64,000 bases of DNA from Candidatus Dojkabacteria bacterium (lineage in GTDB: Bacteria; Patescibacteriota; Dojkabacteria; JAFGLO01): contig JAFGLO010000004.1 of NCBI GenBank assembly GCA_016927995.1, forward strand, positions 64,955 to 128,954, in the 5' to 3' direction. This document shows positions 3,240 through 63,336 of this stretch, in pieces. Position numbers and translations under genes: made by a program. The first letter of the stretch is position 1. Each line of letters starts with the position of its first letter. A model generated the notes under the pieces. That model was not told the DNA's origin. It searched no databases and was given only the letters and a program-made list of their open reading frames with translations.

Positions 3240-3240
3240 T

Positions 3241-18432: not shown

Positions 18433-18439
18433 ATAGATA

Positions 18440-18601
18440 AAACACTCAAATCGGGGCGATGCCCACTTCGGGGTATCCTCCCCGCTTTGGTATTTTGACT
18501 GCACTTTGTTTGTCAAAACACTCAAATCGGGGCGATGCCCGTAAAGGGTATCACCCCCGCTATCGCATTTTGTCTGCACTTTGTTTGTCAAAACACTCAA
18601 A
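18440..18601. repeat. About 76-bp tandem repeat, 2.2 copies, each carrying a decayed tRNA-Pro 3'-end copy (att-like)
   Basis: Units start at about 18440, 18516 and 18590. Each begins AAACACTCAAATCGGGGCGATGCCC. The third unit runs into the genuine tRNA 3' end (ATCGGGGCGACACG...). Confidence 0.7.
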
Positions 18602-18675
18602 TCGGGGCGACACGACTTGAACGTGCGACCTCATGACCCCCAGCCATGCGTTCTAGCCAACTGAACTACGCCCCG
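18602..18675 (-). tRNA. tRNA-Pro (anticodon GGG)
   Basis: Manual cloverleaf fold: acceptor CGGGGCG/CGCCCCG with A73; D stem GTTC/GAAC; anticodon stem CATGG/TCATG with loop CTGGGGG; T stem GCACG/CGTGT with loop TTCAAGT. No encoded CCA. Confidence 0.85.
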
Positions 18676-18925
18676 ATATTATACCCGCTTCAACATAAAA
18701 GCTATCCCTAGCTATTCTACTCTTCTTTATTTTTTGCTCCAAAGATCTAGCTCCTTTCAAATCTTTACATTTCTTAAAGTACACGAGCTTCCATTCTGTG
18801 CCATTTTTCGTATATTTTGATTTTCCTCTATTGTGCTCAGATAGTCTGCGCTTTATATCATCCGTTGATCCAACGTAAATCCTATTCTTTATGTCTTTAA
18901 TTATGTATATCCCAACTTTATTCAT
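18653..18925 (-). CDS. GIY-YIG nuclease superfamily small protein
   Basis: IYIIKDIKNRIYVGSTDDIKRRLSEHN contains the GIY...YVG motifs and conserved R/E/N. It is about 90 aa. Its 3' end overlaps the tRNA-Pro 5' region by about 23 nt. Confidence 0.75.
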   Translation of the reverse strand: MNKVGIYIIKDIKNRIYVGSTDDIKRRLSEHNRGKSKYTKNGTEWKLVYFKKCKDLKGARSLEQKIKKSRIARDSFYVEAGIISGRSSVG

Positions 18926-31171: not shown

Positions 31172-32223
31172 ACCTTATTTATATAACCAAAGAATCGAAT
31201 CTGTATTCCGGTTGCGGAATGGTTATTTCTGAACTTATAAAAGGATTTTCCGGGGAACATAATATCACCCTTATATGCCCTACCGGTACTCTACAAGCTT
31301 GGGCGAATAAGTTTGGAAAAACCATTAAACATGTTCGTTCCGACCTTAATCTGTTTGATCTGTTTCGTGTTAGGCGGGGCATTCCGCTTAAATCGACTAT
31401 TCATATTCATGGGATCTCGAGCCTGATATTTGGGATTTTTTGTGGGTTGGGTCGTACACGCAACTTATTTTACACAGAGCATTTGTGGACAAATGATTTA
31501 AAGCTGCCAAGTTTTATATCCGGATTTTTCCAGAAATTAGCATTACTTTTTTTGTCACCAATGGTTAAAAAGATTGTTTGCGTCTCGAAGAGCGTAAAAA
31601 AGTTTTTTGAAGCTCATGGTGTTTCCTCAAATAAACTTGTAGTGATTTACAACTCCGTACCGACTCCCCAAGAGGTTGTTACGCATTCCCCGAAGGAAGA
31701 GCTCATTATTTCGACAGTAGGCAATTTTAGTTTTTCTAAGGGGTATAACAATCTTGCGGAAGTTATTGACCTAATCCCTGCATCGATTCCGATTAAAGTC
31801 TGTATTGCAGGTTCGGGCAGTGAACTTAATAACTTTAAGAATCTGATAAAAGATTTGGGTATTGAAACCCGATTCGAGCTAATGGGTCAGGTACCAAGTG
31901 TTACAAACCTTCTTCTAAATTCAGATGTTTATATCCAGACGTCAATATCTGAGAGTTTTGGACTTGGGATTGCACAGGCGTTGTCGGTAGGACTTCCGGT
32001 TGTTGCATATAAAGTTGGCGGAATTCCGGAGGTTGTTCAAGACAACAAAAATGGATATTTAACAAGACTTAACGATACAATTGATTTTGCTCATAAACTT
32101 AAAACACTCTTGACCGACAATGAATTAAGAACTGAATTTGGTAAACATGGAATTATGTCTATGAAAAAGTTTAGCAGTGATAAGTTTCTGCGAAAACACA
32201 ATGCTGTTTACGGACTTTTATAA
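31168..32223 (+). CDS. Glycosyltransferase family 4 (GT-B)
   Basis: SESFGLG...A and GGIPEVV, the EX7E-like signature of GT4. The start overlaps the upstream stop (ATGA). Confidence 0.8.
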   Translation: MNLIYITKESNLYSGCGMVISELIKGFSGEHNITLICPTGTLQAWANKFGKTIKHVRSDLNLFDLFRVRRGIPLKSTIHIHGISSLIFGIFCGLGRTRNLFYTEHLWTNDLKLPSFISGFFQKLALLFLSPMVKKIVCVSKSVKKFFEAHGVSSNKLVVIYNSVPTPQEVVTHSPKEELIISTVGNFSFSKGYNNLAEVIDLIPASIPIKVCIAGSGSELNNFKNLIKDLGIETRFELMGQVPSVTNLLLNSDVYIQTSISESFGLGIAQALSVGLPVVAYKVGGIPEVVQDNKNGYLTRLNDTIDFAHKLKTLLTDNELRTEFGKHGIMSMKKFSSDKFLRKHNAVYGLL

Positions 32224-33440
32224 ACAAGTTTCTTTATAACGTAGTAGGCCGATGCTATTGATACTATTCCTTCTGCTATTACAAAGGTTACACTCGCTCC
32301 GGTTGCTCCAAATAGCTGACACAAAATAGTTCCGACAAATATATTTACAATAATGGACGTGACTGAAAATACAAGATAAATCTTGGCTTTATTAAATGAG
32401 ATTAGTGTGTAACCCCAAAGATGCTGCCAAAATACGAATGGGATTCCTAATGTTATTACTCTTAGTGGTATTACACTCTCCATATATTCCGATCCGTTTA
32501 TAAAGTCTATTATGGGGTTGGAGAAAATATAGATGGCCAAACTTATTCCCAGGCCTAGAATACTTAATACAATTATTGCATATAAAAATATTTTTTTAAG
32601 GTTTTGGATCTTTTTTATGTTTCTTGCGATTTCCGGAAATATTGGTGTCATAATTAGTCCCGGAATAACTGTTGCCAGTGTAAGAATTTTTTGTGCTGCA
32701 GAATAGATCCCAACCTCGTAGGCATTGCTGGTTATATCAAGAATTGCTTTATTAAGTTCGTGTGTTAAATAGTGCAAAGTAATTACAATCCCAATAAGGA
32801 TAGATTGTTTTAGTAGCTTGCTAATAATTATTTTGTCCGGTTTTATGAAAGGTGGAATATGGGTTTTGTAAATAATAAAATCGACAAAAAACCATACTAT
32901 TGCCGCTAACGATGTTGCAATAATAAAAGTGGTGGATGTATAAGTAAAATAACGTACAATTATAAAAAACAGAACATATTTAACTCCGGCAACTGCCACC
33001 TCGGAGATTGCTTTTGCGGAAAGATTGTTATCAACCTGTTGAAGCACGTCAATTGGTGCTTTTAAAAGACCCATCAAAACTAATACCGGGCCCATTAAAA
33101 GCCCTGATGCAAATCCAACATAATTGTGAATAAAAGGAGTGATGATAAGTACAATGCAAAATGCGAAAGCAAAAATTAACAATCTTAAGTATAATGAGTT
33201 CCAGAAATACGTTGCACGGTTCTTGGGCTTTTGACTAATATCTCTTGCTGTTATCGAATTTTGACCAAGATCTGATATGTTTTGAATCAAAAGAAGATAA
33301 AAGGTTACAAGATTAAAAATTCCAAGCTCGGCAGGCATTAATGCATGATTCATTGCCTGTGCAGCTAAAAACGAAAACAAAAAATAAAATCCGTTTGCAA
33401 AGAGTAAAACGATAATATTTTTTGATATTTTCTTGAACAC
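32208..33440 (-). CDS. Polysaccharide flippase-like membrane protein (MOP/Wzx family)
   Basis: 410 aa with about 12 TM helices and typical Wzx topology. It lies next to the glycosyltransferase genes. Confidence 0.7.
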   Translation of the reverse strand: MFKKISKNIIVLLFANGFYFLFSFLAAQAMNHALMPAELGIFNLVTFYLLLIQNISDLGQNSITARDISQKPKNRATYFWNSLYLRLLIFAFAFCIVLIITPFIHNYVGFASGLLMGPVLVLMGLLKAPIDVLQQVDNNLSAKAISEVAVAGVKYVLFFIIVRYFTYTSTTFIIATSLAAIVWFFVDFIIYKTHIPPFIKPDKIIISKLLKQSILIGIVITLHYLTHELNKAILDITSNAYEVGIYSAAQKILTLATVIPGLIMTPIFPEIARNIKKIQNLKKIFLYAIIVLSILGLGISLAIYIFSNPIIDFINGSEYMESVIPLRVITLGIPFVFWQHLWGYTLISFNKAKIYLVFSVTSIIVNIFVGTILCQLFGATGASVTFVIAEGIVSIASAYYVIKKLVYKSP

Positions 33441-33454
33441 GATTTTTCCCGGAA

Positions 33455-33700
33455 CTTATAATCCATTATACAGTGAAATAGTGAAGCAGTGAAACAGTAA
33501 AGTAATACTCTGGAAGCCCGATATGTGAGCAGAGATTCGCCTTAACAAGAAAGCAAAAGAGATAAAGGGTTCACTTCGAACATAGGAATCGACGGAAGCT
33601 TAAGCAGTGAAGTAGTGAAACAGTGAAGTATTCCTCTCCGGAAGATACCTATGAGAGAAGTGCCAGGCTTTGACAACAGATTAAATAAAAAATATACTAT
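33455..33700. repeat. Modular intergenic repeat element (8-bp periodic CAGTGAAG arrays plus a conserved core)
   Basis: It contains cagtgaaa-tagtgaag-cagtgaaa-cagtaaag, the core GGTTCACTTCGAACATAGGAATCGACGGAAGCTTAAGCAGTGAAG, and CTCCGGAAGATACCTATGAGAGAAGTG. Related modules occur at 45630-45730, 46440-46795, 53930-54090 and 54781-54860. Confidence 0.8.
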
Positions 33701-42751: not shown

Positions 42752-43338
42752 GTAGGGACAGGTCTAGACCGGCAGGGGGTCCAGAGAGTGCTTACCAATA
42801 TGTCCTTTGTGCTTTTGCACGTTAAAGTATATGTAATTACGAACACGTTGTAGATCTCTTTCATTCCGAATAATATGGTCGTAAAAAGATCTTTGCCATT
42901 CGAATCTGCCGGGAAACCTCTTGTTTATCCTCCATGATGAGTTCGATTTAAATCCTCTCATGATTTCAGACAAGTTTTTTTCTGGTTCAATCAGGTGAAT
43001 TATCCCATGCAAATGGTCTGGCATTACAATGAAGGCATCCAAATCTATTCCGGAATAATGAACAGGTAAGTCATGCCAACAACCCAATATGATTGCGCCT
43101 AAGTCACTTAAGACAAACATATTTCTCTTAATCTTGCCTAGGATCTGGGGCCTTGTCTTTACTACCGTTGTAATAAAGTAAAATCCTGGTGTTTTGTAGT
43201 CGTATCCTTTAAGCCGTTGTCTTTTCCTTCCTTTTTCTTCCATACTTAACATTAACACACCCGCACCCCCATATGGAAGAAACCAAGTTGGCATAATGTG
43301 AATTTAATACCCCTGTCGGTCTAGACCTGTCCCTACTG
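42752..43338. mobile_element. RAYT/IS200-like unit: a HuH Y1 transposase gene flanked by inverted 27-bp REP-like repeats
   Basis: Left repeat GTAGGGACAGGTCTAGACCGGCAGGGGG at 42752-42779. Right repeat, as reverse complement, GTAGGGACAGGTCTAGACCGACAGGGGT at 43311-43338. This is a 27/28 match. Each contains the palindrome GGTCTAGACC. Confidence 0.75.
42764..43294 (-). CDS. tnpA: IS200/IS605-family or REP-associated tyrosine transposase (HuH, Y1)
   Basis: HuH motif DHLHGIIHL, the N-terminal YDYKTPGFYFITT segment, and the C-terminal WQRSFYDHIIR...YIYFNVQKH segment with a candidate catalytic Tyr. It is 176 aa. Confidence 0.78.
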   Translation of the reverse strand: MPTWFLPYGGAGVLMLSMEEKGRKRQRLKGYDYKTPGFYFITTVVKTRPQILGKIKRNMFVLSDLGAIILGCWHDLPVHYSGIDLDAFIVMPDHLHGIIHLIEPEKNLSEIMRGFKSNSSWRINKRFPGRFEWQRSFYDHIIRNERDLQRVRNYIYFNVQKHKGHIGKHSLDPLPV

Positions 43339-45311: not shown

Positions 45312-45693
45312 AGTAATACGAACGATATAAAAAAAAGTAACAGTACTTTCCTCGCTATTATGGGTTGAATACTTCTGTGTGAACTCGCAGGGGGATTGAA
45401 TAATCGAGCCTTAAGATTGGTAGTTGGAGCTCTCGGAGAAGGGCTTTTGGTTTCTGCAAAGAGTCTAAACCGATTAGTGAAGTTTTACTTAATTGGTCAA
45501 CGTGAAGGAATAGATATGGAAGAAGCTCTTGATGAGCGTTTTGCAAGACTAAGAAGACTTTATCAAAGTTCCCTGCAGGCGGTTGATTAGCTCATTCTCT
45601 TGTAGATCGACAAAGGATTTCCAACACAAGCTACCGGCTAAATACTACTTCACCGTACAAGTCCGAGACATGTCTGTACTATTTCACTACTTA

Positions 45694-46371
45694 CTATCCT
45701 CTTCTTGGAACATAAGGAATAATCTTTTTTGCAAGTTCCATAATGGGCATGCTTTGTAGCCATACTTTGCCTGGACCCTTTACTGTTGCCAAAAACAAGC
45801 CTTCACCACCAAACAAAATGTTTTTAAATCCTTTAACCATTTGAATGTCTGCAGTTACACTGTCTTCATATGCGGCAATATATCCGGTATCGACTAGTAG
45901 TTCTTCTCCTTCTGTTAAGAGACGTTCTTCAACTGATCCTGCAACTTCGATAAAAGCTTTGCCTTTGCCTGATAATTTTTGAAGGATAAAGCCTTCACCG
46001 CCTAAAAGTCCCATTCCAAAACGTTTTGTTAAGTGAACGGATAGTTCTACTGTATTTTCTGCAACCATGAATGCATCTTTCTGTGTAATTATACTGTTAC
46101 CTGATAAATCAAATTCAATAATTTGTCCTGGAAATTCCGAGGTAAAGGCAATTTCTGCGTCATCTGCTTCAGACGTGAAGGTTGCCAAAAACATACTTTC
46201 TCCGCTAAATGCTCGACCGATTGCACTCATAACACCGCCTCGCATATTTGTTTCCATTTTAATTTGTGGACTCATCCAGGCCATTCCGCCCTTTTCGGAA
46301 AACACGGATTCTCCTTTTGAGAGTTTCATTACAATGTATGGGAGATTTCCACCTTTTATTTCGTACTTCAT
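45694..46371 (-). CDS. AIM24/DUF124 (TIGR00266) family protein
   Basis: MKYEIKGGNLPYIVMKL...GEGFILQKLSGKGKAFIE...GEGLFLATVKGPGKVWLQS fits the AIM24 repeat pattern. The C-terminal codons overlap one of the intergenic repeat modules. Confidence 0.72.
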   Translation of the reverse strand: MKYEIKGGNLPYIVMKLSKGESVFSEKGGMAWMSPQIKMETNMRGGVMSAIGRAFSGESMFLATFTSEADDAEIAFTSEFPGQIIEFDLSGNSIITQKDAFMVAENTVELSVHLTKRFGMGLLGGEGFILQKLSGKGKAFIEVAGSVEERLLTEGEELLVDTGYIAAYEDSVTADIQMVKGFKNILFGGEGLFLATVKGPGKVWLQSMPIMELAKKIIPYVPRRG

Positions 46372-46439
46372 TTTTTGTTATGTAAAAAATTATCAGATTT
46401 TAGTATAGCACAAATTTTACTTCTCATAGTGATCCTGTT

Positions 46440-46795
46440 GCTATAGTCTCTTGCTTGCTAGTCTATTCACTATTTCACTGCTTAAGTTTCCCTCGATTCC
46501 TATGTTCATCGGAAGCCATTTGCTTATTTTGCCTTTTTGCTAAAGCGATTTCTTCTTCTCACACTAGCTTTTCGGTGATTACTTGACTGTTTTACTACTT
46601 CACTACTTCACTGTTTCACTACGTTACTGCTTCACTGCTTAAGCTTCCGTTGATTCCTATGTTCGAAGTGAACCCTTTATCTGTTTTGCCTTTGTGTTAA
46701 AGCTTGCCACTTCTCTCATAGGTATCTTCCGGAGTGTATTACTTCACTGTTTCACTACTTTACTGTTTAAGGTATACTAAAGTAAGACTTAGTTT
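46440..46795. repeat. Largest cluster of the modular intergenic repeat family (two back-to-back modules)
   Basis: On the opposite strand it reads GGTTCACTTCGAACATAGGAATCAACGGAAGCTTAAGCAGTGAAG and CTCCGGAAGATACCTATGAGAGAAGTGGCAAGC. These are flanked by 8-bp periodic arrays (cttcacta-cttcactg-tttcacta-cgttactg-cttcactg). Confidence 0.8.
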
Positions 46796-46809
46796 ATGTT
46801 TATTTTAGA

Positions 46810-48129
46810 ATGGCACCGGTAACAATAAAAGATATAATTCCCAGGCAGATTATTGATTCCCGAGGTAATCCCACCGTCGAGGTTGACTTAATTTTAACCG
46901 ACGGATCGTTTCATAGAGCATCGGTTCCTAGTGGTGCATCTACCGGGACTCACGAGGTTGTAGAGCTTCGTGATACTAATGATCCCAAACGGTACCACGG
47001 TAAAGGTGTATTACAAGCATGTGTAAATGCCGAGGTCTTAATAGGTCCGCAAATTATGGGACTTGATCCAAGGCTTCAAAAACAAATCGATGAAAGCATC
47101 AGAGCTTCCGATGGAACCGAAAATTTTTCAAATATTGGAGCTAATGCAGCTTTGGCTGTGTCTATTGCAGTTTTAAAGGCAGGTGCATATTTAGAGAATG
47201 TACCCTTATATAGATACATAATGAAAATATTAAAAGATGAATATGGGCTGGCTTATCCTCCCAATCTGATATTTCCGACACCAATGTTCAATGTATTTAA
47301 CGGAGGTGCCCATGCCGATAACAATATTGCAATACAAGAATTCATGATAATTCCATCCGGTATTCCTGACATAAGGGAAAAGATAAGAGCAGGTGCCGAA
47401 ATTTTTCAAACGTTATTAAAGCTTCTTAGCAATCAAAAAATCGATACAGATGTAGGAAATGAAGGTGGTTTTGCTCCCGATCTTCCATCAGACGTTGAAG
47501 CAATGGAGCTCCTAATTAAAGCAATCGAAACATCGGGATACACTCCAGGTGATCAAGTAAATATTGGGCTTGATGTTGCTATATCACAATACTACGATGT
47601 CGAAAGAAAGTGGTATAAGTTGCCACATCAGCTTGTGAATGGAAAGGTGACAAATGTTGAAGGAACCTTTCAGGACGTTGTGGCCTATTACACAATGCTT
47701 TTAGATAAATACCCAATTCTTATTTTGGAGGATGGGTTTCACGAGGATGATTGGGAGGGCTTTGCAACTCTCAAACCAATTATGGATGTTAAAAATCGCT
47801 ACTGTATGGGAGATGATCTTACTGTCACTAATGTTGACCGAATTCAGAAGGGTATTGATACAAACGCAATTAACTCGATAATTATTAAGCCAAATCAGAT
47901 AGGCACGATAACCGGCGTATTCGAAGCTATAAAACTTTGCAAGGACAATGACATAAAAATTGCGACCTCACACAGATCCGGGGAAACTGTCGACACTACA
48001 ATTTCACATATTGCAGTAGGAGGTCAGACCACATTTATAAAAGCCGGTGCACCTAGTCGGTCCGAACGTGCCGAGAAATATAACGAGCTTTTGCGCATGA
48101 TTACACCGGATATGGTGATTAAGAGATAA
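46810..48129 (+). CDS. eno: Enolase
   Basis: N-terminal IIDSRGNPTVEVDL, the KPNQIGT and SHRSGETED-like motifs (as SHRSGETVDT). It is 439 aa. Confidence 0.97.
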   Translation: MAPVTIKDIIPRQIIDSRGNPTVEVDLILTDGSFHRASVPSGASTGTHEVVELRDTNDPKRYHGKGVLQACVNAEVLIGPQIMGLDPRLQKQIDESIRASDGTENFSNIGANAALAVSIAVLKAGAYLENVPLYRYIMKILKDEYGLAYPPNLIFPTPMFNVFNGGAHADNNIAIQEFMIIPSGIPDIREKIRAGAEIFQTLLKLLSNQKIDTDVGNEGGFAPDLPSDVEAMELLIKAIETSGYTPGDQVNIGLDVAISQYYDVERKWYKLPHQLVNGKVTNVEGTFQDVVAYYTMLLDKYPILILEDGFHEDDWEGFATLKPIMDVKNRYCMGDDLTVTNVDRIQKGIDTNAINSIIIKPNQIGTITGVFEAIKLCKDNDIKIATSHRSGETVDTTISHIAVGGQTTFIKAGAPSRSERAEKYNELLRMITPDMVIKR

Positions 48130-48186
48130 AAAATGATCTTTGTAACGTTTATTTATGCTTTATTTGCAGTGCTAATACAGATGCAT

Positions 48187-49923
48187 CTATAAATCCACCA
48201 CTTCGTCCTTAATGGCTCTAAAAATGTTTGCCCAAACAGGAACAACGGTATCTGCCGAAAAAGTACTCGTAGTTGGCTCTTCAAGCTTTACAAGCATAAT
48301 AAACTGCGGATTATCGTAAGGGGCAAATCCCACGAAAGTTACGTTAGTCTTTCCTTCTTGATATCCCGGGGCATCAATCCTTGCAATTTGGGCAGTTCCT
48401 GTTTTTCCGGCAATTTTGTATTCGGGAAATTCGTTAAGGTAATATCTGGCATCGCCTTCCGTAACAACAGTTGACATCATTTGTGATACAGAATCAGCCG
48501 TTTCTTTTGATATAGGGGTTGAAACAACTCTAGGTTCAACAATAAGTGTTTCATCCGGTCCGACTATTTTTTCAACAATATAGGGCTGCATTCGCTTGCC
48601 GTCATTTGCAATTGCCGAAATGGCTGAAATAATTTCGATTGGGGTTGCAGTAATCATTTGTCCGTACGAAGCAGTTGCAACGTCAAGTTTTGTCCATTCA
48701 GTGTGGTTAGGATAGAGTCCTGAGACTTCATCACCAAGGCCTATTCCGCTTTTTGTTCCAATTCCGAATTTTACAAGATAGTTATAATATTCCTCAGGAG
48801 TTAGTAACATTCCAATTTGTGCGGCACACACATTGTTTGACTTTTGGAGAACACCGGCAGGGGTTAGGGCTCCATCGGGACGTTTATTCCAAGTGTAGAG
48901 TTTATAGTCGTATACTTCTATATATCCATAATTATCATAACAGATATAGTTCTCATCAATTTTTCCAAGCTCAAGCGCCATTGAGATCGTAAGTGGTTTA
49001 TTAACTGACCCGTATTCATAAGCATCGGATACAGCTCTATTTCTGTAAACTCCGGTGTCTTTTACTTCCCAATATTTATTTGGATCATAGGTTGGATAGC
49101 TTGCCATTGCAATAATTTCCCCTGTTTTGGGATCCATTACAATTGCGACTCCGCCTTTTGATCCGGTTTCGACTACTCCTTGCTTAAGTTCGTCTTCTAC
49201 AATTCGTTGAACCGTTGAATCAATTGTTAGTACAATATCTTTACCGTCACGTGGGCGGATAGGATCGTAATCAGCCTCAAGAATAATATTTCCTAAGATA
49301 TCCCTTTCCGAAAGTGAATAACCCTTTGTGCCTGAAAGTGCACCCCAATAAAATTGTGTAACGCCGTATTGACCCTCATCTTCACCATAATCATTCTTTT
49401 TTACAAACCCAAGAACGTTTGCTGCAAGTTTTCCGTTTGGATAGATACGTCGATACTCCTTTTCAAAATGAATTCCGAAAAGATTTTGTTCTTCGATTGC
49501 TCGTTTTGTTGAGTCGTCGATAAAATGCTTTATCGGATAGTAGTTTGGATTTTTTTCAATATTTGCTGAAAGTTCTTCATATGAAAATCCAAGTGTATCC
49601 GAAATAATTTTTAGAACGGTATCTTTTTGCTCTATAAATGTTTTCTTGTCATAACTTGAACTTCCTATCGAAAAATATAAAAACCATACAGGTTCATCTA
49701 TAGAAAGGACTGTGCCGTCCGATGAGTAGATTATTCCCCGTTGTGAAACAATGGTTTCTTGTGCGCTAGTAAGGTTTTCCGCAGCCGTTCTGTATCGTTC
49801 ATGAAAAACAATCTGCCATTTATACATTTGATAGACGATAAGTCCGATAAATATGGAAAAACCTAGGAATACCCAGATTAATCTTGGGAGCATATCGGAC
49901 TCGGAATTACGACGTACATTCAT
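48187..49923 (-). CDS. ftsI: Class B penicillin-binding protein (FtsI/PBP2-type transpeptidase)
   Basis: N-terminal TM helix, SVNK (SxxK), an SxN motif and KTGTAQ. It is the last gene of the mraZ-rsmH-ftsL cluster. Confidence 0.88.
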   Translation of the reverse strand: MNVRRNSESDMLPRLIWVFLGFSIFIGLIVYQMYKWQIVFHERYRTAAENLTSAQETIVSQRGIIYSSDGTVLSIDEPVWFLYFSIGSSSYDKKTFIEQKDTVLKIISDTLGFSYEELSANIEKNPNYYPIKHFIDDSTKRAIEEQNLFGIHFEKEYRRIYPNGKLAANVLGFVKKNDYGEDEGQYGVTQFYWGALSGTKGYSLSERDILGNIILEADYDPIRPRDGKDIVLTIDSTVQRIVEDELKQGVVETGSKGGVAIVMDPKTGEIIAMASYPTYDPNKYWEVKDTGVYRNRAVSDAYEYGSVNKPLTISMALELGKIDENYICYDNYGYIEVYDYKLYTWNKRPDGALTPAGVLQKSNNVCAAQIGMLLTPEEYYNYLVKFGIGTKSGIGLGDEVSGLYPNHTEWTKLDVATASYGQMITATPIEIISAISAIANDGKRMQPYIVEKIVGPDETLIVEPRVVSTPISKETADSVSQMMSTVVTEGDARYYLNEFPEYKIAGKTGTAQIARIDAPGYQEGKTNVTFVGFAPYDNPQFIMLVKLEEPTTSTFSADTVVPVWANIFRAIKDEVVDL

Positions 49924-49924
49924 T

Positions 49925-50254
49925 TTACTTAACCTGTGCCAAATTTCCTACTGGAAGGTATATTACCGTTTCAGGTGTTTTCATTTCAAGCTCTGTTTCT
50001 GCCTGAATGCGAATAAGTTCAGTGGAATTATAGTGTGCAAGATCATTTAAAACAGTTGCCGAGCTATCTGTGATTTTTTCAACTTCCTCTTCAATTTGTC
50101 TTAGTTCACTGCCGATTGGTAATAGTTGCGTCGAGGAATAAAGTTTGACTGTTATATAACTTAACACAGATATGAGTCCAATCAAAAAACAGATTGTAAG
50201 AGATGAAAGCCTTGGAATTTTGATGAATGATTGTCTGTTTTTGGGCAGTGTCAC
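49925..50254 (-). CDS. ftsL: Cell-division protein FtsL-like
   Basis: 109 aa with a single TM helix followed by a coiled-coil-like region. It sits in the conserved position between rsmH and ftsI. Confidence 0.6.
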   Translation of the reverse strand: MTLPKNRQSFIKIPRLSSLTICFLIGLISVLSYITVKLYSSTQLLPIGSELRQIEEEVEKITDSSATVLNDLAHYNSTELIRIQAETELEMKTPETVIYLPVGNLAQVK

Positions 50255-50270
50255 GGCAGTGTTTGTTATG

Positions 50271-51215
50271 TTATGTAGATTTTTCTATTACAAAAAGCTT
50301 GGCGCTTCTAGAGCGTTTATTTTCCAATACTTCTTCTTCTTCTGGGGTAAGAGGGACTGGGGTAAGAAGCGAAAGGCTGTCGAAGTTTTCATTAATGAAA
50401 CTTTCAACAACACCGGCTTCGAGTGAGTGGTATGCAAGAATGACTAGTCGTCCCTTGTGAGAAAGTAAGGAAAATGCCTCCGGAAGCGCTGCTTTTAGGT
50501 TGTTAATTTCGTCGTTGACGGCAATTCTTAATGCCTGAAAAACCCGTCTTGCCGGGTGTTTTCTTCCTCTGTCGTAGTTTTCCGGCACTCCCTTGTAGAT
50601 TGCCTTTACAAGCTCGTGCGTGGTTGTAAGCTCTTCTGCTTTTCTGGCTTTTATTATTTCTCTGGCAATTGATTTGCTATAACGTTCTTGTCCGTATACT
50701 GTAAAGAGTTTGGTTAGTTCGGACTCTGATAGAGCATGTAAAAGATCAAAGGCGTTTACTAATAGGTCTTTATCCATTCGCATATCGAGCTTGCTGCTTC
50801 CGTAAAAGCTAAAGCCACGATTTTTCTGGGCGAGCTGTCTACTACTAAGTCCAAGATCAAATAAGACTCCGTTTATAGATTCAATGTTGTGTTTATTTAA
50901 AATCTTTTTCATGGATTTAAAGTTGGCCTTTTCAATTATCCAGTTGTCAAGTTTGGCTAATGGGTTATTTGTTTTTACGAACTCTATACTTTCGGTATCG
51001 TGATCTAGGCTTACAAGCTTACCTGAGCCTAGTGCCTTAAGGATTTCAGTGCTATGTCCGCCATCACCTAATGTTGCATCAACGTAGTTCCCTTCAGGAA
51101 CAATATTAAGGTACTCAATAACTTTCTCTAAAAGTACCGGTTTATGTACTGGTGCCTTATTCATTTCTGTTTTGGTTTGTAAGTTTTTGTGCAATTTCTT
51201 CACCATGTGTGTCAA
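50271..51215 (-). CDS. rsmH: 16S rRNA m4C1402 methyltransferase RsmH (MraW)
   Basis: HKPVLLEKVIEYL and DATLGDGGHS motifs. It is 314 aa. Confidence 0.95.
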   Translation of the reverse strand: MTHMVKKLHKNLQTKTEMNKAPVHKPVLLEKVIEYLNIVPEGNYVDATLGDGGHSTEILKALGSGKLVSLDHDTESIEFVKTNNPLAKLDNWIIEKANFKSMKKILNKHNIESINGVLFDLGLSSRQLAQKNRGFSFYGSSKLDMRMDKDLLVNAFDLLHALSESELTKLFTVYGQERYSKSIAREIIKARKAEELTTTHELVKAIYKGVPENYDRGRKHPARRVFQALRIAVNDEINNLKAALPEAFSLLSHKGRLVILAYHSLEAGVVESFINENFDSLSLLTPVPLTPEEEEVLENKRSRSAKLFVIEKST

Positions 51216-51594
51216 GATAAGAAAGTCGTTTCTGCCAGCTTTCCGTGCTCCAGACTTCTATCCAGTTAAGAAGTCCGACAAAGACTACCTCTTTTTGTAT
51301 TTGTGCATATTTAAAGAGATTGTCCGGGATCACAAATCGACCCTGAGTATCGGGTAATATTTCTTTTGCGCCACCAACCAAGATTCTGGCAGTATCCCTG
51401 ACAAAATTATTAATTATTGAGCCGTTTGTGATTTCGCTTGTTATCTTTTCAAAGCGATCCTTGTTAACGAGCACTAAAGAATTTTCGTACCCACGAGTTA
51501 TATATAACTTACCTTTTAGCTCTTTTCGTAGATCATACGGAATTGCTATGCGTTTTTTTTCTCCAACCTTTTGCATGAATTCACCTATTAGCAT
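51157..51594 (-). CDS. mraZ: Transcriptional regulator MraZ
   Basis: Duplicated MraZ/SpoVT-AbrB-like halves (DxxxR) at 145 aa. It is the first gene of the dcw cluster. Confidence 0.9.
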   Translation of the reverse strand: MLIGEFMQKVGEKKRIAIPYDLRKELKGKLYITRGYENSLVLVNKDRFEKITSEITNGSIINNFVRDTARILVGGAKEILPDTQGRFVIPDNLFKYAQIQKEVVFVGLLNWIEVWSTESWQKRLSYLDTHGEEIAQKLTNQNRNE

Positions 51595-51639
51595 TGTAAA
51601 ACCTGTTTATTTAAATTCATTATTCGGATTTGTTTCCAA

Positions 51640-51705
51640 GGTGGTAACCCCACATATCACCACTAGTCACCACCAATATAGCATGCTGAAAACGGGCTTG
51701 TCAAA
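51640..51705 (-). promoter_or_regulatory. mraZ promoter with MraZ operator direct repeats
   Basis: On the minus strand: TTGACA (51699-51704), an 18-nt spacer, TATATT (51675-51680), then GTGGTGActaGTGGTGAtatGTGGGGT. That is three GTGG[T/G]G repeats at 10-bp spacing, the canonical MraZ-binding architecture. Confidence 0.6.
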
Positions 51706-51722
51706 TGGTTGAATCATCTTTC

Positions 51723-51946
51723 GTAGGGACAGGTCTAGACCCGCACCTCCAGTTCGGGAAATTGCCAGTGGATAACCATTCTAAGAGACCGATCTTTGCA
51801 TACACCTACACGCATTGGAAAATATATTGACCAGCTCGTTATTTGTTAGCAGGGGTGTGGGTGTAAGACCGTCACGGGGTTATTAGAGTCATGATCTTTT
51901 CGTTATTTGAATGTTGCGGCATGTCGGTCTAGACCTGTCCCTACTA
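51723..51946. repeat. REPIN-like element: two inverted copies of the REP-like repeat with no transposase
   Basis: GTAGGGACAGGTCTAGACCCGCACC lies at 51723-51747. Its inverted partner GTCGGTCTAGACCTGTCCCTAC lies at 51923-51946. They enclose about 175 bp of non-coding DNA. Confidence 0.7.
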
Positions 51947-51950
51947 CGAT

Positions 51951-52017
51951 ATTTATCGATACTTACCGATATTTACCGGTATTTACCGGTATTTATCGAT
52001 ACTTACCGATACTTACA
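51951..52017. repeat. Tandem array of about 6.7 x 10-bp palindromic repeats upstream of the ECF sigma gene
   Basis: ATTTATCGAT ACTTACCGAT ATTTACCGGT ATTTACCGGT ATTTATCGAT ACTTACCGAT ACTTACAGTG. Each unit holds an ACCGGT or ATCGAT palindrome. The array ends 3 nt before the TATAAT (52021-52026) of the GTG-start sigma gene. Confidence 0.75.
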
Positions 52018-52061
52018 GTGTATAATACTGTAACCTGCATAATCTATATAAATAACGCAAG

Positions 52062-52625
52062 GTGAACGAATCAAAGTTGGTACAAACAGCACAAAACGGA
52101 GATAGCACCGCAATGCAGGCCTTATACGAAGAAAGCGTTAGTTGTATATACCGCTTTGTATACTCGTTCTCATTAGGAAAAGAAGTTACCGATGATATTG
52201 TCGCAGAAAGCTTTACAAAAGCGTTTGAAAAACTTAAACAATTTAGGGGAAAAAGCTCTTTTAAAACATGGGTGTATAAAATTGCAAGAAATGAAGTATA
52301 CACATATTTCAACAAAAAAAGAGGGACCATTCCGATGGATGAAGAAAAAATAGAGCAAGTGGCTGATCGCATTGGTAATGATATTTTGCAGAGTCATGAA
52401 AATGATCGACATACCAATAATGACAATAAGAACGAGCGACTTGTAAGGAAAATACTAAATCAGTTGCCTGCCAGGCAGGCAGAAGTTCTAAGATTGCGGT
52501 TTATTTTGGGGTATACCGTAAAAGAGTGTGCACTGGAGTTAAAAATTTCCGAAGGCAATGTAAAGGTGATTCAGAATAGGGCATTGGGAAAAGCTAATAA
52601 GTTGGTGAATAAAGAAAATGGATAA
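52062..52625 (+). CDS. ECF-type RNA polymerase sigma factor (sigma-70 regions 2 and 4)
   Basis: The region 2 motifs YRFVYSF...D (2.1) and WVYKIARN (2.4), and the region 4 helix-turn-helix segment VLRLRFILGYTVKECALELKISEGNVK. Confidence 0.85.
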   Translation: MNESKLVQTAQNGDSTAMQALYEESVSCIYRFVYSFSLGKEVTDDIVAESFTKAFEKLKQFRGKSSFKTWVYKIARNEVYTYFNKKRGTIPMDEEKIEQVADRIGNDILQSHENDRHTNNDNKNERLVRKILNQLPARQAEVLRLRFILGYTVKECALELKISEGNVKVIQNRALGKANKLVNKENG

Positions 52626-53232
52626 CATAAAGAGTGTGTTTAAACAATACAATAATTCAGTTAAACCGGATGATAGTACTGTTATGCGTATTTGGAACAG
52701 GATTAGCAGTAACCTTGATCAAATGTCTCAACGTGAACCTAAGGTTAATCCAAAGCAACTGATAAAATCCAAATCGTGGGCAAGATTTGTTTTGGGCTTT
52801 GCTAAAAATCTTTTAATAGGCGGTGCATTTGTTCCACTGTCCTTGGTGATTGGCTTTTTAACGTTTAATACCTTCGAGGTAATTTCTCGACATGTTCTAC
52901 CCGGGGGAAATCTTGGCCTTAATCAGTTAGAATCTTCTGAAAATCTTTATGAAGAGGCGTTTAGCACAGAAGAAAAAAGGCTTAAAGAGAGTTCAGATAT
53001 CGGTGAGTTGAATGCCATAGACTTTGCGTCTCCTCCAACTTCCATCGTGGATGACGAACATATAAGTGCCAAAGAAACAAATACCCGTGAAATCTTGGAC
53101 AAAACCGAGACGCATAATGCTAAGGATGGTTATGTAAGAGCAATAATATATTTTGGAACTGGACTTATGGTAATAACAATCGGCTGGGGATTATATGGAG
53201 TTATAAGGCTTATAAGAAGTAGGATTGATTAA
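52618..53232 (+). CDS. Putative membrane anti-sigma factor
   Basis: It overlaps the sigma gene stop. It has two TM helices (residues about 55-80 and about 180-200) and an N-terminal cytoplasmic segment. The call rests on position and topology only. Confidence 0.45.
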   Translation: MDNIKSVFKQYNNSVKPDDSTVMRIWNRISSNLDQMSQREPKVNPKQLIKSKSWARFVLGFAKNLLIGGAFVPLSLVIGFLTFNTFEVISRHVLPGGNLGLNQLESSENLYEEAFSTEEKRLKESSDIGELNAIDFASPPTSIVDDEHISAKETNTREILDKTETHNAKDGYVRAIIYFGTGLMVITIGWGLYGVIRLIRSRID

Positions 53233-53489
53233 ACAACATTAATCTGAAGTTTGCCTCGTTTGTATCCGGTTAACTTTTTGAAAGAAACCGTTCCTTCCTT
53301 TGTAGCATAGATGGTGAAATCTTTACCCATTTTGGTATTTTCGCCGGGATACATTTTGGTGCCAAGCTGGCGAATAATGATAACTCCGGGCTTAACACTC
53401 TGTCCTTCGTTTACTTTTAGACCACGTCTTTTACCTGCAACATTTACACCTTGTCTTGCTTTAGACGAGCCTGCCGCAACATGTGCCAT
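53229..53489 (-). CDS. rpmA: 50S ribosomal protein L27
   Basis: MAHVAAGSSK...GVIIIRQLGTKMYPGENTKMGKDFTIYA matches the L27 consensus. It is 86 aa. Confidence 0.95.
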   Translation of the reverse strand: MAHVAAGSSKARQGVNVAGKRRGLKVNEGQSVKPGVIIIRQLGTKMYPGENTKMGKDFTIYATKEGTVSFKKLTGYKRGKLQINVV

Positions 53490-53571
53490 GACTTTTTATC
53501 TCTGTAAGTTAATGCATTATAAATGCGGAGCTATTTTAATATATGTACACGACTTAGTCAATGATATTTGG

Positions 53572-53880
53572 TTATTCGCCTAAATCGACTAATCCTTGGG
53601 GGGCATCTTCATCTTCCGGGAGAATTGGGCCAAATTCCTCTTCCTCTTCATTGGTTACGATATCCGGTTCGACCGGTCTTGCTACTGCATTACCGTCAAT
53701 CACGCTTACAACTCTCATAAGTTCGCCACAAAAGGGGCACTTGATTGTTTTTTCAATTTCCTCACCGCAGTTTGGACATTGGAGAACAATGATTTGATGA
53801 TTGCAGTTGCCATGAGTGTTTTCTTCACCCTCTATTACTAGCCCGGTATCTGTTATTATTCTTTTGGTTTTACTGGACAT
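53572..53880 (-). CDS. Small zinc-ribbon protein with an acidic C-terminal tail
   Basis: CPNCGEE...CPFCGE and a run of EEEEE. The upstream 44 codons of the ORF overlap a repeat module, so the start at 53880 is preferred. Confidence 0.5.
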   Translation of the reverse strand: MSSKTKRIITDTGLVIEGEENTHGNCNHQIIVLQCPNCGEEIEKTIKCPFCGELMRVVSVIDGNAVARPVEPDIVTNEEEEEFGPILPEDEDAPQGLVDLGE

Positions 53881-53929
53881 TATAATGCAATCGGTTATGT
53901 AAATATTTATTAGTATACATGCCGGAGAG

Positions 53930-54090
53930 AGATTGTCAAATGGTAGTAAGTAGTAGGGATATGTCAATGACTTGTCCAGTAGTAAAGTAATACTCCGGAA
54001 CATAGGAATCAACGGAAGCTTGCGCAGTAAAGCAGTGAAGTAATCCTCTCCGGAACATAGGAATCGATGGAGTATTAAATCGTAAAAAAG
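53930..54090. repeat. Modular intergenic repeat (two core copies)
   Basis: CTCCGGAACATAGGAATCAACGGAAGCTTGCGCAGTAAAGCAGTGAAGTAATCCTCTCCGGAACATAGGAATCGATGGAG. Confidence 0.75.
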
Positions 54091-54101
54091 TGAGCAAGTG
54101 C

Positions 54102-54773
54102 TTACTCCGACAAAACAACAACGGTAAATTCACCCTTTAAAGGAATTTCATTTCCCAAAAGCTGTGCTATCTCTGTAGCCTTTTTTGTGACAATCTGCTC
54201 ATGGATTTTGGTAAGCTCACGAGCAATACAGACGGAAGCTATCGGATATTTTTGTGCAATATAATCAAGGACGGATTTTATCCTTCTTGGCGATTCAAAA
54301 AATAAGAATGTTTCCTTGCGTGCAATATATTTATCGAGTACTTTGTGAAACTTTACGGTTTTAGGTAGAAATCCTATGAAGGTAAAAGGATAAGGAGGAA
54401 GTCCGCTTGCAGTAAGTGCTGTGGTGATTGCCGATGCACCAGGAATGGATACAACGTTATGTTCTGTAGTCTCTTTTATTTTGCGGACCACGGTAAAGCC
54501 AGGGTCGGATATAATAGGTGTCCCGCTTTCCGATACGATTGCCAGATTTTTACCATCGTTAAGTAGTTTTATAATACCTTCGGCTGATTCTGTTTCATTA
54601 TGGTTTTCGTGAACCATTAATCTTTTTTTAATGCCGTATTTTCCTAAAAGTTTAAGAGTTGTGCGTGTGTCCTCGCATAAAATAACATCGACTGCCTTTA
54701 GGGTATCCAGCGCCCGCAGTGTAATGTCTTTTAGATTGCCAATTGGTGTTGCGACAAGGTAAAGTGTTGCCAT
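54102..54773 (-). CDS. rsmI: 16S rRNA (cytidine1402-2'-O)-methyltransferase RsmI
   Basis: LYLVATPIGNLKDITLRAL...ILCEDTR, tetrapyrrole-methylase fold. It is 223 aa. Confidence 0.9.
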   Translation of the reverse strand: MATLYLVATPIGNLKDITLRALDTLKAVDVILCEDTRTTLKLLGKYGIKKRLMVHENHNETESAEGIIKLLNDGKNLAIVSESGTPIISDPGFTVVRKIKETTEHNVVSIPGASAITTALTASGLPPYPFTFIGFLPKTVKFHKVLDKYIARKETFLFFESPRRIKSVLDYIAQKYPIASVCIARELTKIHEQIVTKKATEIAQLLGNEIPLKGEFTVVVLSE

Positions 54774-54780
54774 ATAATCA

Positions 54781-54860
54781 GTATACAGTAATCAGTGGAA
54801 TAGTGAAATAGTGAAGCAGGAGAGATAGGTCTATGATTTGTTTATAAGTAGTAAGCAGTA
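54781..54860. repeat. Modular intergenic repeat (8-bp CAGTGGAA/TAGTGAAA array)
   Basis: cagtggaa-tagtgaaa-tagtgaag-caggagag in the divergent promoter region. Confidence 0.6.
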
Positions 54861-54925
54861 AAACAATGAGTAAGAAAAGTGTGTTATAATATATATGCAT
54901 AATCTGTAAAATATCAACAGATCCT

Positions 54926-55777
54926 ATGGGGCAGCTAGAAATCATAACAAATTATCCTATTACTTATGGGCGTGATAAATTGCCATTATATTTAGATCAG
55001 GTTTGCCGGTATAATCCTGAAGTGTTTTGCAATACAACATCTGGTCATCAATTATTGTTTCGAGTTCCTAAATTTAATCTTTTTTCTTGGACCTCTTCAC
55101 TTTTTGGGTGTCCGTCGCTTAGCTCAAATTTAAAATCAACCGTTGTGGATCTGGAGGTTTGGCTGGTTGATGGCGACAAGCTCTACTACAAACCGGTTTG
55201 TAATAATACTCTTCCTAATGAAGGATGGAGCAATGATTTGGGGGAGTACTCGGGATTTGGGCTTTTAGTTTATTGCAATGGAGAGAAAAGGGTAGATTTT
55301 GTAATTGAAAGGGATTTGGGGAATCTAGAAAGATTTGATCCCAAGAGTAAAGAGGCAAGATCAATTTGTAGCAGCTTGTTTGACTTAACTGTTTTAAAAT
55401 TTGAGGATTTTAAGTTAATTGATTTCTTCACTCCGGAAGGTTCTATTCGTTGTGGTCTTTATAAGGGTAGATTATATGAGGGAGTAAGAACGGAGTATGA
55501 ATTGGGTGAAAGGTTAGCTGCGGAGCTAGAAGCAAAAATGAGATTAGCTTATAGGAAGATAATGGCTCTGGATACCGGTTTAGCAATGATTGATGTTCTG
55601 TCGGGGTTGATTAATGACCAAATAAAAGAGAGCTTTCCGGGAATTTCAATTGAGGGGTATCGTTCAGCATTTGATGATAGCCGTGCTACCCCACTAACTC
55701 CACGAAATCAAGGAGAATTACTACCAGAACCATCTTCCGGTATAATCCGGCATTCACCTGAATCGCGTCCCAACTAA
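54926..55777 (+). CDS. Hypothetical protein
   Basis: 283 aa with no recognisable motif. Somewhat GC-richer 3' end. Confidence 0.45.
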   Translation: MGQLEIITNYPITYGRDKLPLYLDQVCRYNPEVFCNTTSGHQLLFRVPKFNLFSWTSSLFGCPSLSSNLKSTVVDLEVWLVDGDKLYYKPVCNNTLPNEGWSNDLGEYSGFGLLVYCNGEKRVDFVIERDLGNLERFDPKSKEARSICSSLFDLTVLKFEDFKLIDFFTPEGSIRCGLYKGRLYEGVRTEYELGERLAAELEAKMRLAYRKIMALDTGLAMIDVLSGLINDQIKESFPGISIEGYRSAFDDSRATPLTPRNQGELLPEPSSGIIRHSPESRPN

Positions 55778-55861
55778 AACATCTAAGCAGGTTTCTGTGG
55801 AGGAAGTAGGAGCCAGTAAACCCGACACGTACGTTAATGACTGGTGTGTTATACTTATTCC

Positions 55862-56437
55862 ATGAACATACTTACGATCTCAACAACAAATGCAATATTT
55901 CTTGGTTTCTATCATGATACCGTCCAATTGACGGCATATCTTGACCAAAACCCTTCAAATATTGCCGAAGATATAGATGAAATCTATAAAAGTGTTATCG
56001 GCACTGAGATACCTGAGCTTATTATAGTTGATTTGGGGCCCGGTTCCTTTACCGGTTCACGTGTTGGTGTTGCATTTGCCAAGGGATTGGCCTTGGCGTT
56101 TAATATTCCTGTTGTAGGTGTGTCGTTATTATCGGCAATTTGTTACCAGAAATATTTGACTTCCGGTAAGTCTTCCGACATGTATTCCGCACAAATTGAT
56201 GCAAACAACGGAAATGTTTATACATTAGATTTAAACCTACCTTCCGATAATCTTTTAGAATCTCAACTTTCGATAGGGTTCAAAAAATCATCAAAGTTCG
56301 ATGAGATTAATGATGCTGTATTTGATGCCATGACAAAGCTTGGACTGCAAATATATTCAACCGGACGTTCCTCCGACGTTTTAACGCTTGCGCCTATTTA
56401 CGGTCGACCCGTTAATATTACTCCTCCTAAAAAGTGA
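55862..56437 (+). CDS. tsaB: tRNA t6A biosynthesis protein TsaB (YeaZ)
   Basis: MNILTISTT...IIVDLGPGSFTGSRVGVAFAKGLA fits the inactive Kae1/YgjD paralog pattern. Confidence 0.85.
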   Translation: MNILTISTTNAIFLGFYHDTVQLTAYLDQNPSNIAEDIDEIYKSVIGTEIPELIIVDLGPGSFTGSRVGVAFAKGLALAFNIPVVGVSLLSAICYQKYLTSGKSSDMYSAQIDANNGNVYTLDLNLPSDNLLESQLSIGFKKSSKFDEINDAVFDAMTKLGLQIYSTGRSSDVLTLAPIYGRPVNITPPKK

Positions 56438-57675: not shown

Positions 57676-57712
57676 CACGAGACGTTTCCCGGTGTTAAGG
57701 TTTTGTAGAAGT

Positions 57713-58162
57713 TTATTTATATACAAATTCAATTCCCACATCTTTCGCCCTTTGCCTCTTAAATTCCCAAAACCTATCAGACTTCTTTGACGTAATAAGC
57801 ACGTCCGGCATTAGTTTCCTTAAAAGATCCAAATGCTGCTTATTCCCCACCTTGGGATCTTTCGAAATAGTAACAGGATTAACAAACACCAAATCAATAT
57901 CCCGTAAAGCACTTAAAACCTCTTTTCTTAAACCTTCTTTAAATATAGGCCTACTTGGGCCCTTACACTCGCTAACCGAAACATCGTTATCAATACATAC
58001 GACTAAAAAGTCGCAATGCTTTTTAGCAAACGCAAAAAGCCTAACGTGCCCAATGTGCAAAACATCAAAAATACCGGAAATAAAGCCAACCTTTTTGCCG
58101 GCGGCTTTTGCCTTTTTAATAGAAGCAACTACATCATTCATATACAGAATGTTATCATACAA
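57713..58162 (-). CDS. Cytidylyltransferase-like nucleotidyltransferase (HxGH family; RfaE domain II / TagD-like)
   Basis: GIFDVLHIGHVRLF (HxGH) and a later ISKD motif. It is 149 aa. Confidence 0.75.
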   Translation of the reverse strand: MYDNILYMNDVVASIKKAKAAGKKVGFISGIFDVLHIGHVRLFAFAKKHCDFLVVCIDNDVSVSECKGPSRPIFKEGLRKEVLSALRDIDLVFVNPVTISKDPKVGNKQHLDLLRKLMPDVLITSKKSDRFWEFKRQRAKDVGIEFVYK

Positions 58163-58199
58163 TAAGGATTGCCAAAAGAGACCTAACTTGCTAGACTAA

Positions 58200-60413: not shown

Positions 60414-60451
60414 ACTTGTTTCTTTTAGTTAGATAAACCGTACCCTTAATT

Positions 60452-61267: not shown

Positions 61268-61281
61268 TGATAAAATAGGGT

Positions 61282-63180: not shown

Positions 63181-63336
63181 GGTTGGATTTGCTTAGCCTA
63201 TGGTGTAAAATAATAGAGCTATTATTGTTCTTGCGGGATCGTCTTCCCGATGGACAGAAACGTCCATACGGGATTAAACGCTAGTAGTATTTTGGAGGAG
63301 TTCAAAATGCTATCCGACGATTCCCATTGTTGTCAC

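Follow-up and report, generated by a model that had tools for sequence, protein, structure and literature searches.

A modular intergenic repeat family with 8-bp tandem arrays in a Candidatus Dojkabacteria genome

Five intergenic sites in a 64,000-nt stretch of an uncultured Candidatus Dojkabacteria (CPR) genome (the window, meaning the whole of the DNA analyzed here) carry a repeat that is a three-part mosaic, combining STRR-like 8-bp tandem arrays, a module that comes in nested sizes and, in three of the copies, decayed REP-type hairpins. The reading that we favor, at about even odds, is that of a non-coding mosaic, specific to the lineage and akin to REP/BIME, BOX and STRR repeats, that has spread by duplication and slippage and is tolerated between promoters. 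The family is most likely selfish or neutral DNA, not a novel RNA or an unprecedented type of system.

The octamer YAGTRAAR matches the 64-kb window 51 times, against 25.6 +/- 5.7 expected and a shuffle maximum of 39, and by our count the five named sites hold 23 of the 51. In-phase runs, called where at least two units follow in register with one mismatch tolerated, comprise 2-7 units and are confined to five sites in the 64 kb. The core GAACATAGGAATC occurs exactly five times (ACATAGGAATC at 33580, 46495(-), 46652(-), 54000 and 54055), the chance expectation for the core in the window with one mismatch tolerated being only 1.5 matches, and a module of ~100 nt is present three times. Neither BLAST (word size 7) nor an nhmmer profile of the module recovered further family copies in the window, and a search for extra copies via spurious ORFs, with six translated reverse-strand stretches as a joined query, returned nothing at E <= 10. 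All copies lie between 33.4 and 54.9 kb (21 kb), leaving the remaining ~43 kb of the window empty. The initial annotation had proposed a modular intergenic family at five or more sites, in both orientations and mostly in divergent spacers, and for the five named this is borne out: all five have arrays, A, B and D have exact cores and A to D have modules, with copies A, D and E on the forward strand and B and C on the reverse.

Read with the unit as YAGTRAAR, each copy is a tandem of array and module, the arrays numbering 1 to 7 units and the module having nested sizes of ~25, ~35 and ~103 nt. The element as a whole measures ~70 to 360 nt, varying through this internal tandem structure, and its copies are laid out as follows.

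Copy A, 33471-33675, forward: array (4 units), long module, array (3 units), half module
Copy A, array 1, 33471-33502, forward: CAGTGAAA TAGTGAAG CAGTGAAA CAGTAAAG
Copy A, long module, 33503-33604, forward: 5' arm degenerate, 3' arm CACTTCGAACATAGGAATC intact (33572-33590)
Copy A, array 2, 33605-33628, forward: 3 units
Copy A, half module, 33629-33675, forward: 5' arm GATACCTATGAGAGAAGTG at 33644-33662; 90% to copy B
Copy B, 46765-46402, reverse: array (3 units), long module, array (7 units), long module, array (2 units), degenerate half module
Copy B, array 0, 46742-46765, reverse: 3 units
Copy B, long module B1, 46638-46741, reverse: the sole intact one, with 19-nt inverted arms (46708-46726 / 46652-46670)
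Copy B, array 1, 46582-46637, reverse: 7 units, one mismatch in each of two
Copy B, long module B2, 46481-46581, reverse: degenerate, folding no better than shuffles
Copy B, array 2 and tail, 46402-46480, reverse: 2 units (46465-46480), degenerate half module, terminal TGCTATACT
TGCTATACT at the end of copy B, before AIM24 (start codon 46371): extended -10 by eye
Copy C, 45625-45696, reverse: units TAGTAAG TAGTGAAA, the first TAG being the AIM24 stop codon
Copy C, remainder, reverse: REP-like hairpin 45653-45678, TGAAG, minimal module TAGTATTTAGCCGGTAGCTTGTG
Copy D, 53941-54072, forward: short modules only; degenerate units 53941-53953
Copy D, hairpin and unit, forward: REP-like hairpin 53954-53979, one unit 53980-53987
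Copy D, modules, forward: D1 53988-54024, two units 54025-54040, D2 54041-54072
Copy E, 54786-54863, forward: no module; CAGTAAT and 3 units (54786-54816)
Copy E, remainder, forward: decayed REP-like segment 54817-54848, then units TAGTAAG CAGTAAAA
Short module, as in copy D: TAATACTCCGGAA joined to CATAGGAATCAACGGAAGCTTGCG
Long module: ~65 nt at the junction of TAATACTCCGGAA and CATAGGAATCAACGGAAGCTTGCG, starting with GATACCTATGAGAGAAGTG

Whole-element similarity among the copies is 80-93%; A and B align over 121 nt at 80% and over 77 nt at 90%, and a 24-nt core is identical between B1 and D1. The single conserved core described at the outset proves to be two arrangements merged: CTCCGGAA directly abuts CATAGGAATC only in the short modules (53988-54072), and the two lie ~65 nt apart in the long modules (33503-33604; 46638-46741; 46481-46581), where GATACCTATGAGAGAAGTG is the inverted complement of the following CACTTCGAACATAGGAATC and the pair makes up the 19-nt arms. 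Copy C sits at the 3′ end of AIM24, whose product is 69% identical to that of a syntenic relative and has the same end point, which puts the start of the array precisely at the stop codon. The core-like ggaacataaggaataatc noted there (45620-45735) is on the other strand, within codons for a C-terminus that is conserved in the relative (KKIIPYVP vs KKILKYIP), and probably matches by chance. Both AIM24 and rsmI have a copy on either side, the two copies sharing one orientation in each case. The element is non-coding, given forward-strand stop codons in all three frames and indels between copies; the longest ORF at 53572-54012 (146 aa) extends into copy D for the sole reason that no frame of the element's reverse strand is closed.

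Among the 26 units, positions 2-4 are invariant and positions 6 and 7 are each conserved in 25; position 1 is C in 15 and T in 11, position 5 is G in 19, A in six and C in one, and position 8 is G in 15, A in ten and T in one, with seven of the eight possible combinations of positions 1, 5 and 8 occurring. Two readings fit this pattern, concerted evolution of a microsatellite-like array with three old polymorphisms or the constraint of a recognition site. The modules diverge by 7-20%, whereas the arrays are homogeneous, as might be expected if the arrays undergo concerted evolution by slippage.

In three copies, the reverse strand of the array provides a −35-like TTCACT whose −10-like partner hexamer, at the 5′ end of the copy, is 16-17 nt away. 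The promoter-like sites at the copies, all of them consensus matches, are these.

TTCACT-17-TATAAT, 33493 to 33465, reverse: copy A, towards the polysaccharide-flippase gene (32208-33440, reverse)
TTCACT-16-TATACT, 46751-46778, forward: copy B, 32 nt before the enolase start codon
TTCACT-16-TATACT, 54807 to 54780, reverse: copy E, 7 nt before the rsmI start codon
TTGACA-16-TATACT, 53939 to 53912, reverse: abuts the 5' end of copy D; zinc-ribbon-protein / L27 operon
TTGACA-17-TATACT, 33670-33698, forward: TTGACA from the end of the copy A half module; before the YibE/F gene at 33722
Promoter-like sites upstream of the arrays, forward: copy A 33433-33462, copy E 54749-54778

By eye, the ends of B and E read TGnTATACT and TGnTATAAT. 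Copies A, B and E have promoter-like sites on either side, and D has one directly at its 5′ end; judged by these matches, the copies would occupy the gap that separates divergent promoters. Both ends of A and B carry a 5-nt TATAC, which is indistinguishable from the −10 boxes of the two promoters. Beside copy D, the TTGACA-16-TATACT site together with an ATG at 53883 suggests a 103-aa zinc-ribbon-like protein, and the relative has a 107-aa gene in the same place. At 51640-51680, the mraZ strand has three GTGGTGA-like boxes at 10-bp spacing, which precede mraZ by 45-90 nt, and the relative has GGTGA three times at equal spacing beside its own mraZ (L204 14793-14825). MraZ binds direct repeats at 10-bp spacing, and these boxes are probably its operator. 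Another array of 10-bp units (51947-52016) was considered for this role and rejected, the GTGGTGA set adjoining mraZ being the better one.

The window also contains a RAYT gene, located 3-11 kb from the family copies.

RAYT gene with flanking REPs, 42752-43336, reverse: ORF 42764-43294, 176 aa; not a family copy

The ORF matches Y1_Tnp and scores 80.7 bits, against a cut-off of 80, with the NCBIfam equivalog REP_Tyr_transpos (REP-associated tyrosine transposase). It is flanked by inverted, GTAG-headed 27-nt REPs (GTAGGGACAGGTCTAGACCGRCAGGGG; 42752-42778 and 43310-43336), an architecture described previously (PMC5581495). Hairpins related to these GTAGGGACA-headed REPs are found inside the arrays of copies C, D and E, the units continuing on both sides, and the initial view that the element does not resemble REP is to that extent unsupported. 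The nested inserts have 2-3 mismatches to TAGGGACAKGTCT and fold weakly (−2.1 to −2.2 kcal/mol), compared with −5.9 to −7.5 kcal/mol for the true REPs at 2348, 24975 and 36905. The RAYT system is their probable source. Their insertion points are ambiguous: restoration of array phase by hairpin excision was tried and discarded, as several deletions work equally well. The arrays and modules themselves are unlike REPs, having neither a GTAG head nor a short imperfect palindrome, and the RAYT flanks carry GTAGGGACAGGTCTAGACC repeats, with neither YAGTRAAR arrays nor the module. Relatives of the RAYT (45-47% identity, at most 47%, and mostly from other phyla) have GTAGGG-headed REPs, and those in other phyla have no 8-bp arrays, so the arrays are not a general companion of the RAYT clade. 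Because the arrays and modules are unlike REPs and the relatives lack arrays, the link of the family to the RAYT comes down to the nested hairpins and proximity. Copies A and B are without REP, and the motifs of the family are unrelated to those of the E. coli BIMEs.

REPs occur elsewhere in the window as well. Related GTAGGGA hairpins are present at 2348-2441, 24977 and 36918, the first of these sites comprising three tandem 30-mers. These three lie in frame within the arginyl-tRNA synthetase gene (934-2712), adding ~30 residues (GSRDMSVTCPADRDMSVTCPTDGEMSQTCPAC) just before the anticodon-binding domain, and recall the palindromic elements inserted in frame in Rickettsia. The REP of the RAYT occurs as another inverted pair (51716-51745 and 51922-51944), 177 nt apart, which forms a REPIN- or MITE-like unit within 51716-52016; directly after it come seven 10-bp units CGATATTTAC, TATAAT and then the ECF sigma gene at 52062. 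Here again an array of short period directly adjoins the head of a REP, reading ...ATCG TAG TAGGGACAGG where copy D has ...TAAG TAG TAGGGATATG.

The genes that surround the copies are housekeeping genes, including a polysaccharide flippase, two YibE/F, gyrA, a class I (Trp/Tyr) tRNA synthetase, Sua5, AIM24, enolase, a PBP2 / rsmH / mraZ cluster, an ECF sigma factor, L27, rsmI and a TsaD-family gene. GC content is ~38% and GC skew is positive throughout, hence the window contains no replication origin or terminus. At 18439-18676, a 75-bp unit is repeated 2.3 times, each unit duplicating the 3′ end of the neighboring tRNA-Pro gene (18601-18676, reverse), and these units may be remnants of repeated integration at the tRNA. 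Two short-read contigs retrieved from SRR13394437, which is of the same sample (L068 and L208), are identical to the window over 46706-54034 and 54005-63366. Inside copy D the two overlap by 30 nt (54005-54034), a stretch that has no second occurrence in the window and of which at most 17 nt in a row are repeated there, and three of the four contig ends fall in repeats, two in family copies and one in tRNA-Gln. Copy E, which consists of arrays only, has no assembly break. The implied branch of the assembly graph at copy D may hint at another near-identical copy elsewhere in the sample; strain variation could have the same effect.

How far the family extends beyond this genome can be gauged from a relative and from large collections. 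Each window protein stands alone in its 90% cluster, save for a 46-aa fragment in one cluster, and the nearest enolase relatives are 61-65% identical. The contig of the relative (L204) has the same order of AIM24 / enolase / PBP2 / rsmH / mraZ / sigma / L27 / rsmI, and its orthologous spacers gave no array, no module and no BLAST match; the AIM24-enolase spacer is 438 bp here versus 177 bp there. The core GAACATAGGAATCRANGG gave 67 single hits in 185,579 species genomes, a collection perhaps without this genome or its unmasked part; they fall in unrelated phyla with no multi-copy genome, which is about chance level by our estimate. Core plus junction had 0 hits among metagenome contigs, and the core as a family was not found in plasmid and phage collections, where only an iteron-like array matched. 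As far as these genomes, metagenomes and the syntenic relative reach, the family is lineage-specific.

Arrays alone are another matter. A mixed C-T-C array pattern of YAGTGAAR units has 87 metagenome loci on contigs with a GC of 0.27-0.71. A widespread conserved motif was considered and rejected, and we do not take these loci as one family, because in a viral collection permuted controls are about as frequent as the real pattern, which had 0 hits there against 1, 2 and 0 for three permuted patterns; 8-bp tandem repeats with degenerate units seem to form a low background, whatever their unit. The 48 viral hits to three YAGTRAAR units are homogeneous AT-rich microsatellites. Some contigs (L137, L142, L144 and L154) do have comparable modular or multi-site arrangements. 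In marine metagenome contigs (GC 0.34), three tandem modules of the form (CAGTGAAR)n - ATATAATAA - (CCGAATCA)n are seen (L137 at 2925-3470, L134 and L192), from a genome that differs from the host and has several kinds of 8-bp array side by side; by eye, we take the ORFs on either side of them to be a small one with a four-helix-bundle C-terminus of the 23S rRNA intervening-sequence type and a CysQ-like one. Arrays of YAGTGAAR occur at two or more sites inside larger repeats in L142 (150-340 and 1500-1720), L144 (1180-1380 and 6150-6280) and L154. The first of these contigs (GC 0.60) has (GGGTCTRG)n - GAAGAG - (YAGTGAAR)n, the second a dispersed repeat of ~130 nt whose internal units number either 1-2 or 5, and the third places its arrays beside CAGTCAA heptamers, an STRR-like unit that we take to be a cyclic permutation of the STRR unit CAACAGT. 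By our reading, the array comes just after a gene stop codon, in sense orientation, in eight of 12 inspected metagenome contigs.

Several known systems share features with the family. BOX of Streptococcus pneumoniae has the form boxA-(boxB)n-boxC, is intergenic and near promoters, and has a boxB of 45 nt and a stable overall stem-loop; the likeness is that of a modular intergenic repeat with a variable internal tandem number near promoters, and the differences are the 8-bp unit, the unrelated sequence and the overall stem-loop in BOX. We know of no BIME with 8-bp tandem arrays. REP, REPIN and BIME elements with RAYTs in Enterobacteria and Pseudomonas (PMC3116915, PMC3337134, PMC5581495) are, like the family, short non-coding intergenic mosaics with variable motif numbers, and here a RAYT with GTAG-headed REPs is in the window and REP-type hairpins form part of three copies; but the arrays and module are unlike REPs, and mobilization by the RAYT is only a proposal. 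The STRR repeats, with 7-bp units described from heterocyst-forming cyanobacteria (PMC2670836), share very short tandem units over many intergenic sites (five here), whereas the family has an 8-bp unit, a CPR host and arrays tied to a fixed module, making the resemblance one of kind only. Re-used or “mobile” promoters (PMC3575422) similarly place like promoter-proximal sequences before unrelated genes of one genome, and the ends of the family coincide with −35- or −10-like hexamers, although promoter activity is a prediction here and most of the conserved sequence lies between the promoters rather than in them. An 8-bp period had been called unusual for protein-binding repeats, a statement that does not hold, as near-identical contiguous TAGTARRR 8-bp iterons exist on an E. 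faecalis rep9 plasmid, the iteron of pAD1 is quoted as TAGTRRR (PMC9743546) and pBMB165/pXO2-type plasmids have 8-bp iterons (PMC1626470). This defeats the argument from period and makes a protein-operator reading a legitimate one. The only database match of the element is in fact that of its array to E. faecalis rep9 plasmids, of which NZ_CP124937 (L215) has two TAGTARRR clusters at 110-390, preceding the genes for a ParA-like ATPase and a DUF5388 protein. Both are contiguous 8-bp direct repeats with a conserved core (TAGTARRR vs YAGTRAAR, the latter in 26 units) upstream of promoters; but the plasmids have one or two clusters beside a ParA-like and a small partner gene, whereas the family has five chromosomal sites with non-array modules attached and no adjacent Rep, ParA or centromere-binding gene in the window.

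Alternatives to a spreading mosaic begin with the possibility that the family is purely local, the product of a few duplications or gene conversions within the 21-kb stretch. This is a serious though lesser candidate, which would account for the absence of copies from the other 43 kb, for the bracketing of AIM24 and rsmI by same-orientation pairs, and for the lack of a multi-core genome in the collection scan, bearing in mind that the collection perhaps lacks this genome. The assembly speaks against it, since the short-read contigs meet inside copy D in an overlap that occurs once in the window and the branch there hints at a further copy in the sample, as strain variation could do too. Less likely still, in our view, is the idea that the arrays are operators or iterons of a sequence-specific DNA-binding protein that binds cooperatively and controls the divergent promoters, with the modules as passengers. 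Five of the eight unit positions are essentially invariant and variation consists of transitions at positions 1, 5 and 8; near-identical arrays (TAGTAAGA TAGTAAAA TAGTGAAG ...) are those of the rep9 plasmid; and the arrays overlap the −35-like hexamer at three promoter-like sites and abut a fourth. Candidate binders would be small centromere-binding or ribbon-helix-helix proteins, of which RepC with the TAGTARRR repeats of pAD1, the omega heptads of pSM19035 and the MetJ met-boxes offer precedents. Yet Pfam and NCBIfam searches of the ORFs at ~30-56 kb found no ParA-, RepC-, DUF5388- or ribbon-helix-helix-like gene, and a whole-window tblastn with the E. faecalis ParA-like and DUF5388 proteins found nothing. 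Flippase, YibE/F, AIM24, enolase, the L27 operon and rsmI make no obvious regulon, conservation extends beyond the arrays to ~100 nt of other sequence, copy C is at the 3′ end of a gene, and the syntenic relative has these genes without arrays. A speculative extension, built on the plasmid analogy and to our minds rather unlikely, is that YAGTRAAR units are chromosomal iterons that a small protein, similar to RepC of pAD1 or to omega, would coat, co-regulating or organizing housekeeping promoters, the mosaic serving to spread the sites.

It is much less probable that the element acts as RNA, either as a structured non-coding RNA, as had been suggested initially, or as a purine-rich sponge for a protein via AGUGAA and GGA motifs. 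The arms of B1 do form a hairpin at −25.8 kcal/mol and either strand of this module folds well (z = −5.1 and −4.3), the arrays of A and E are closely preceded by forward promoter-like sites, and the top strand is purine-rich with stops in all frames; but the other two long modules (z = +1.0 and −0.4) fold no better than shuffles and the short modules have no fold beyond shuffles, so the fold is not conserved. The near-identical arms leave no covariation to count, Rfam has no match, whether at the gathering threshold or with E <= 1, the copies examined have no terminator-like site, and the strongest promoter-like sites point away from the element. The suggestion of a structured RNA family is accordingly not supported. 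Least probable, and very much so, is a MITE or IS-end remnant moved by a DDE transposase. The element is short, non-coding and dispersed in both orientations, and TATAC stands at both ends of A and B, but this pentamer coincides with predicted −10 boxes, the two ends are unlike (array versus half module) without terminal inverted repeats, the size varies from ~70 to 360 nt via the internal tandem structure, and plasmid and phage collections have no match except the iteron-like array. The earlier judgment that the family is neither a known MITE nor CRISPR is thus upheld; for the latter, the units are 8 nt and contiguous, and the sequences between arrays are themselves repeated.

The mosaic reading, on which we settle, finds support in the long conserved stretches outside the short motifs, which fit duplication and not independent binding sites. 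Against it count the terminal inverted repeats of a transposition signature, which were not found, the confinement of unit variation to positions 1, 5 and 8, as a protein site would show, and the fact that only five copies are seen, all within 21 kb. As a mechanism, slipped-strand mispairing would grow, shrink and homogenize the arrays, and whole blocks of array, module and array may be copied to new spacers by recombination, by gene conversion or by a RAYT-like single-strand hairpin route. REP hairpins may have landed later in the arrays, which are rich in (G)YAG motifs resembling the GTAG head of REPs. Copies would persist between divergent promoters, where they presumably disturb nothing, and the reverse strand of the array could provide a usable −35-like TTCACT at the right distance from a −10. 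The element would have no function of its own, any effects on promoters being secondary.

As it stands, the family is a single-genome curiosity of a general type already known. It bears on assembly, with short-read contigs ending at or inside repeated sequence. Should the arrays prove to bind a protein, the plasmid 8-bp iterons would have in them a counterpart on the chromosome. CPR bacteria have very small genomes and, to our knowledge, are not noted for dispersed repeats. A RAYT, its REPs, REP-type insertions and an unrelated 8-bp-array mosaic are found together in this one CPR window and would offer a compact case for how short repeats arise, spread and come to be tolerated near promoters in a streamlined genome.
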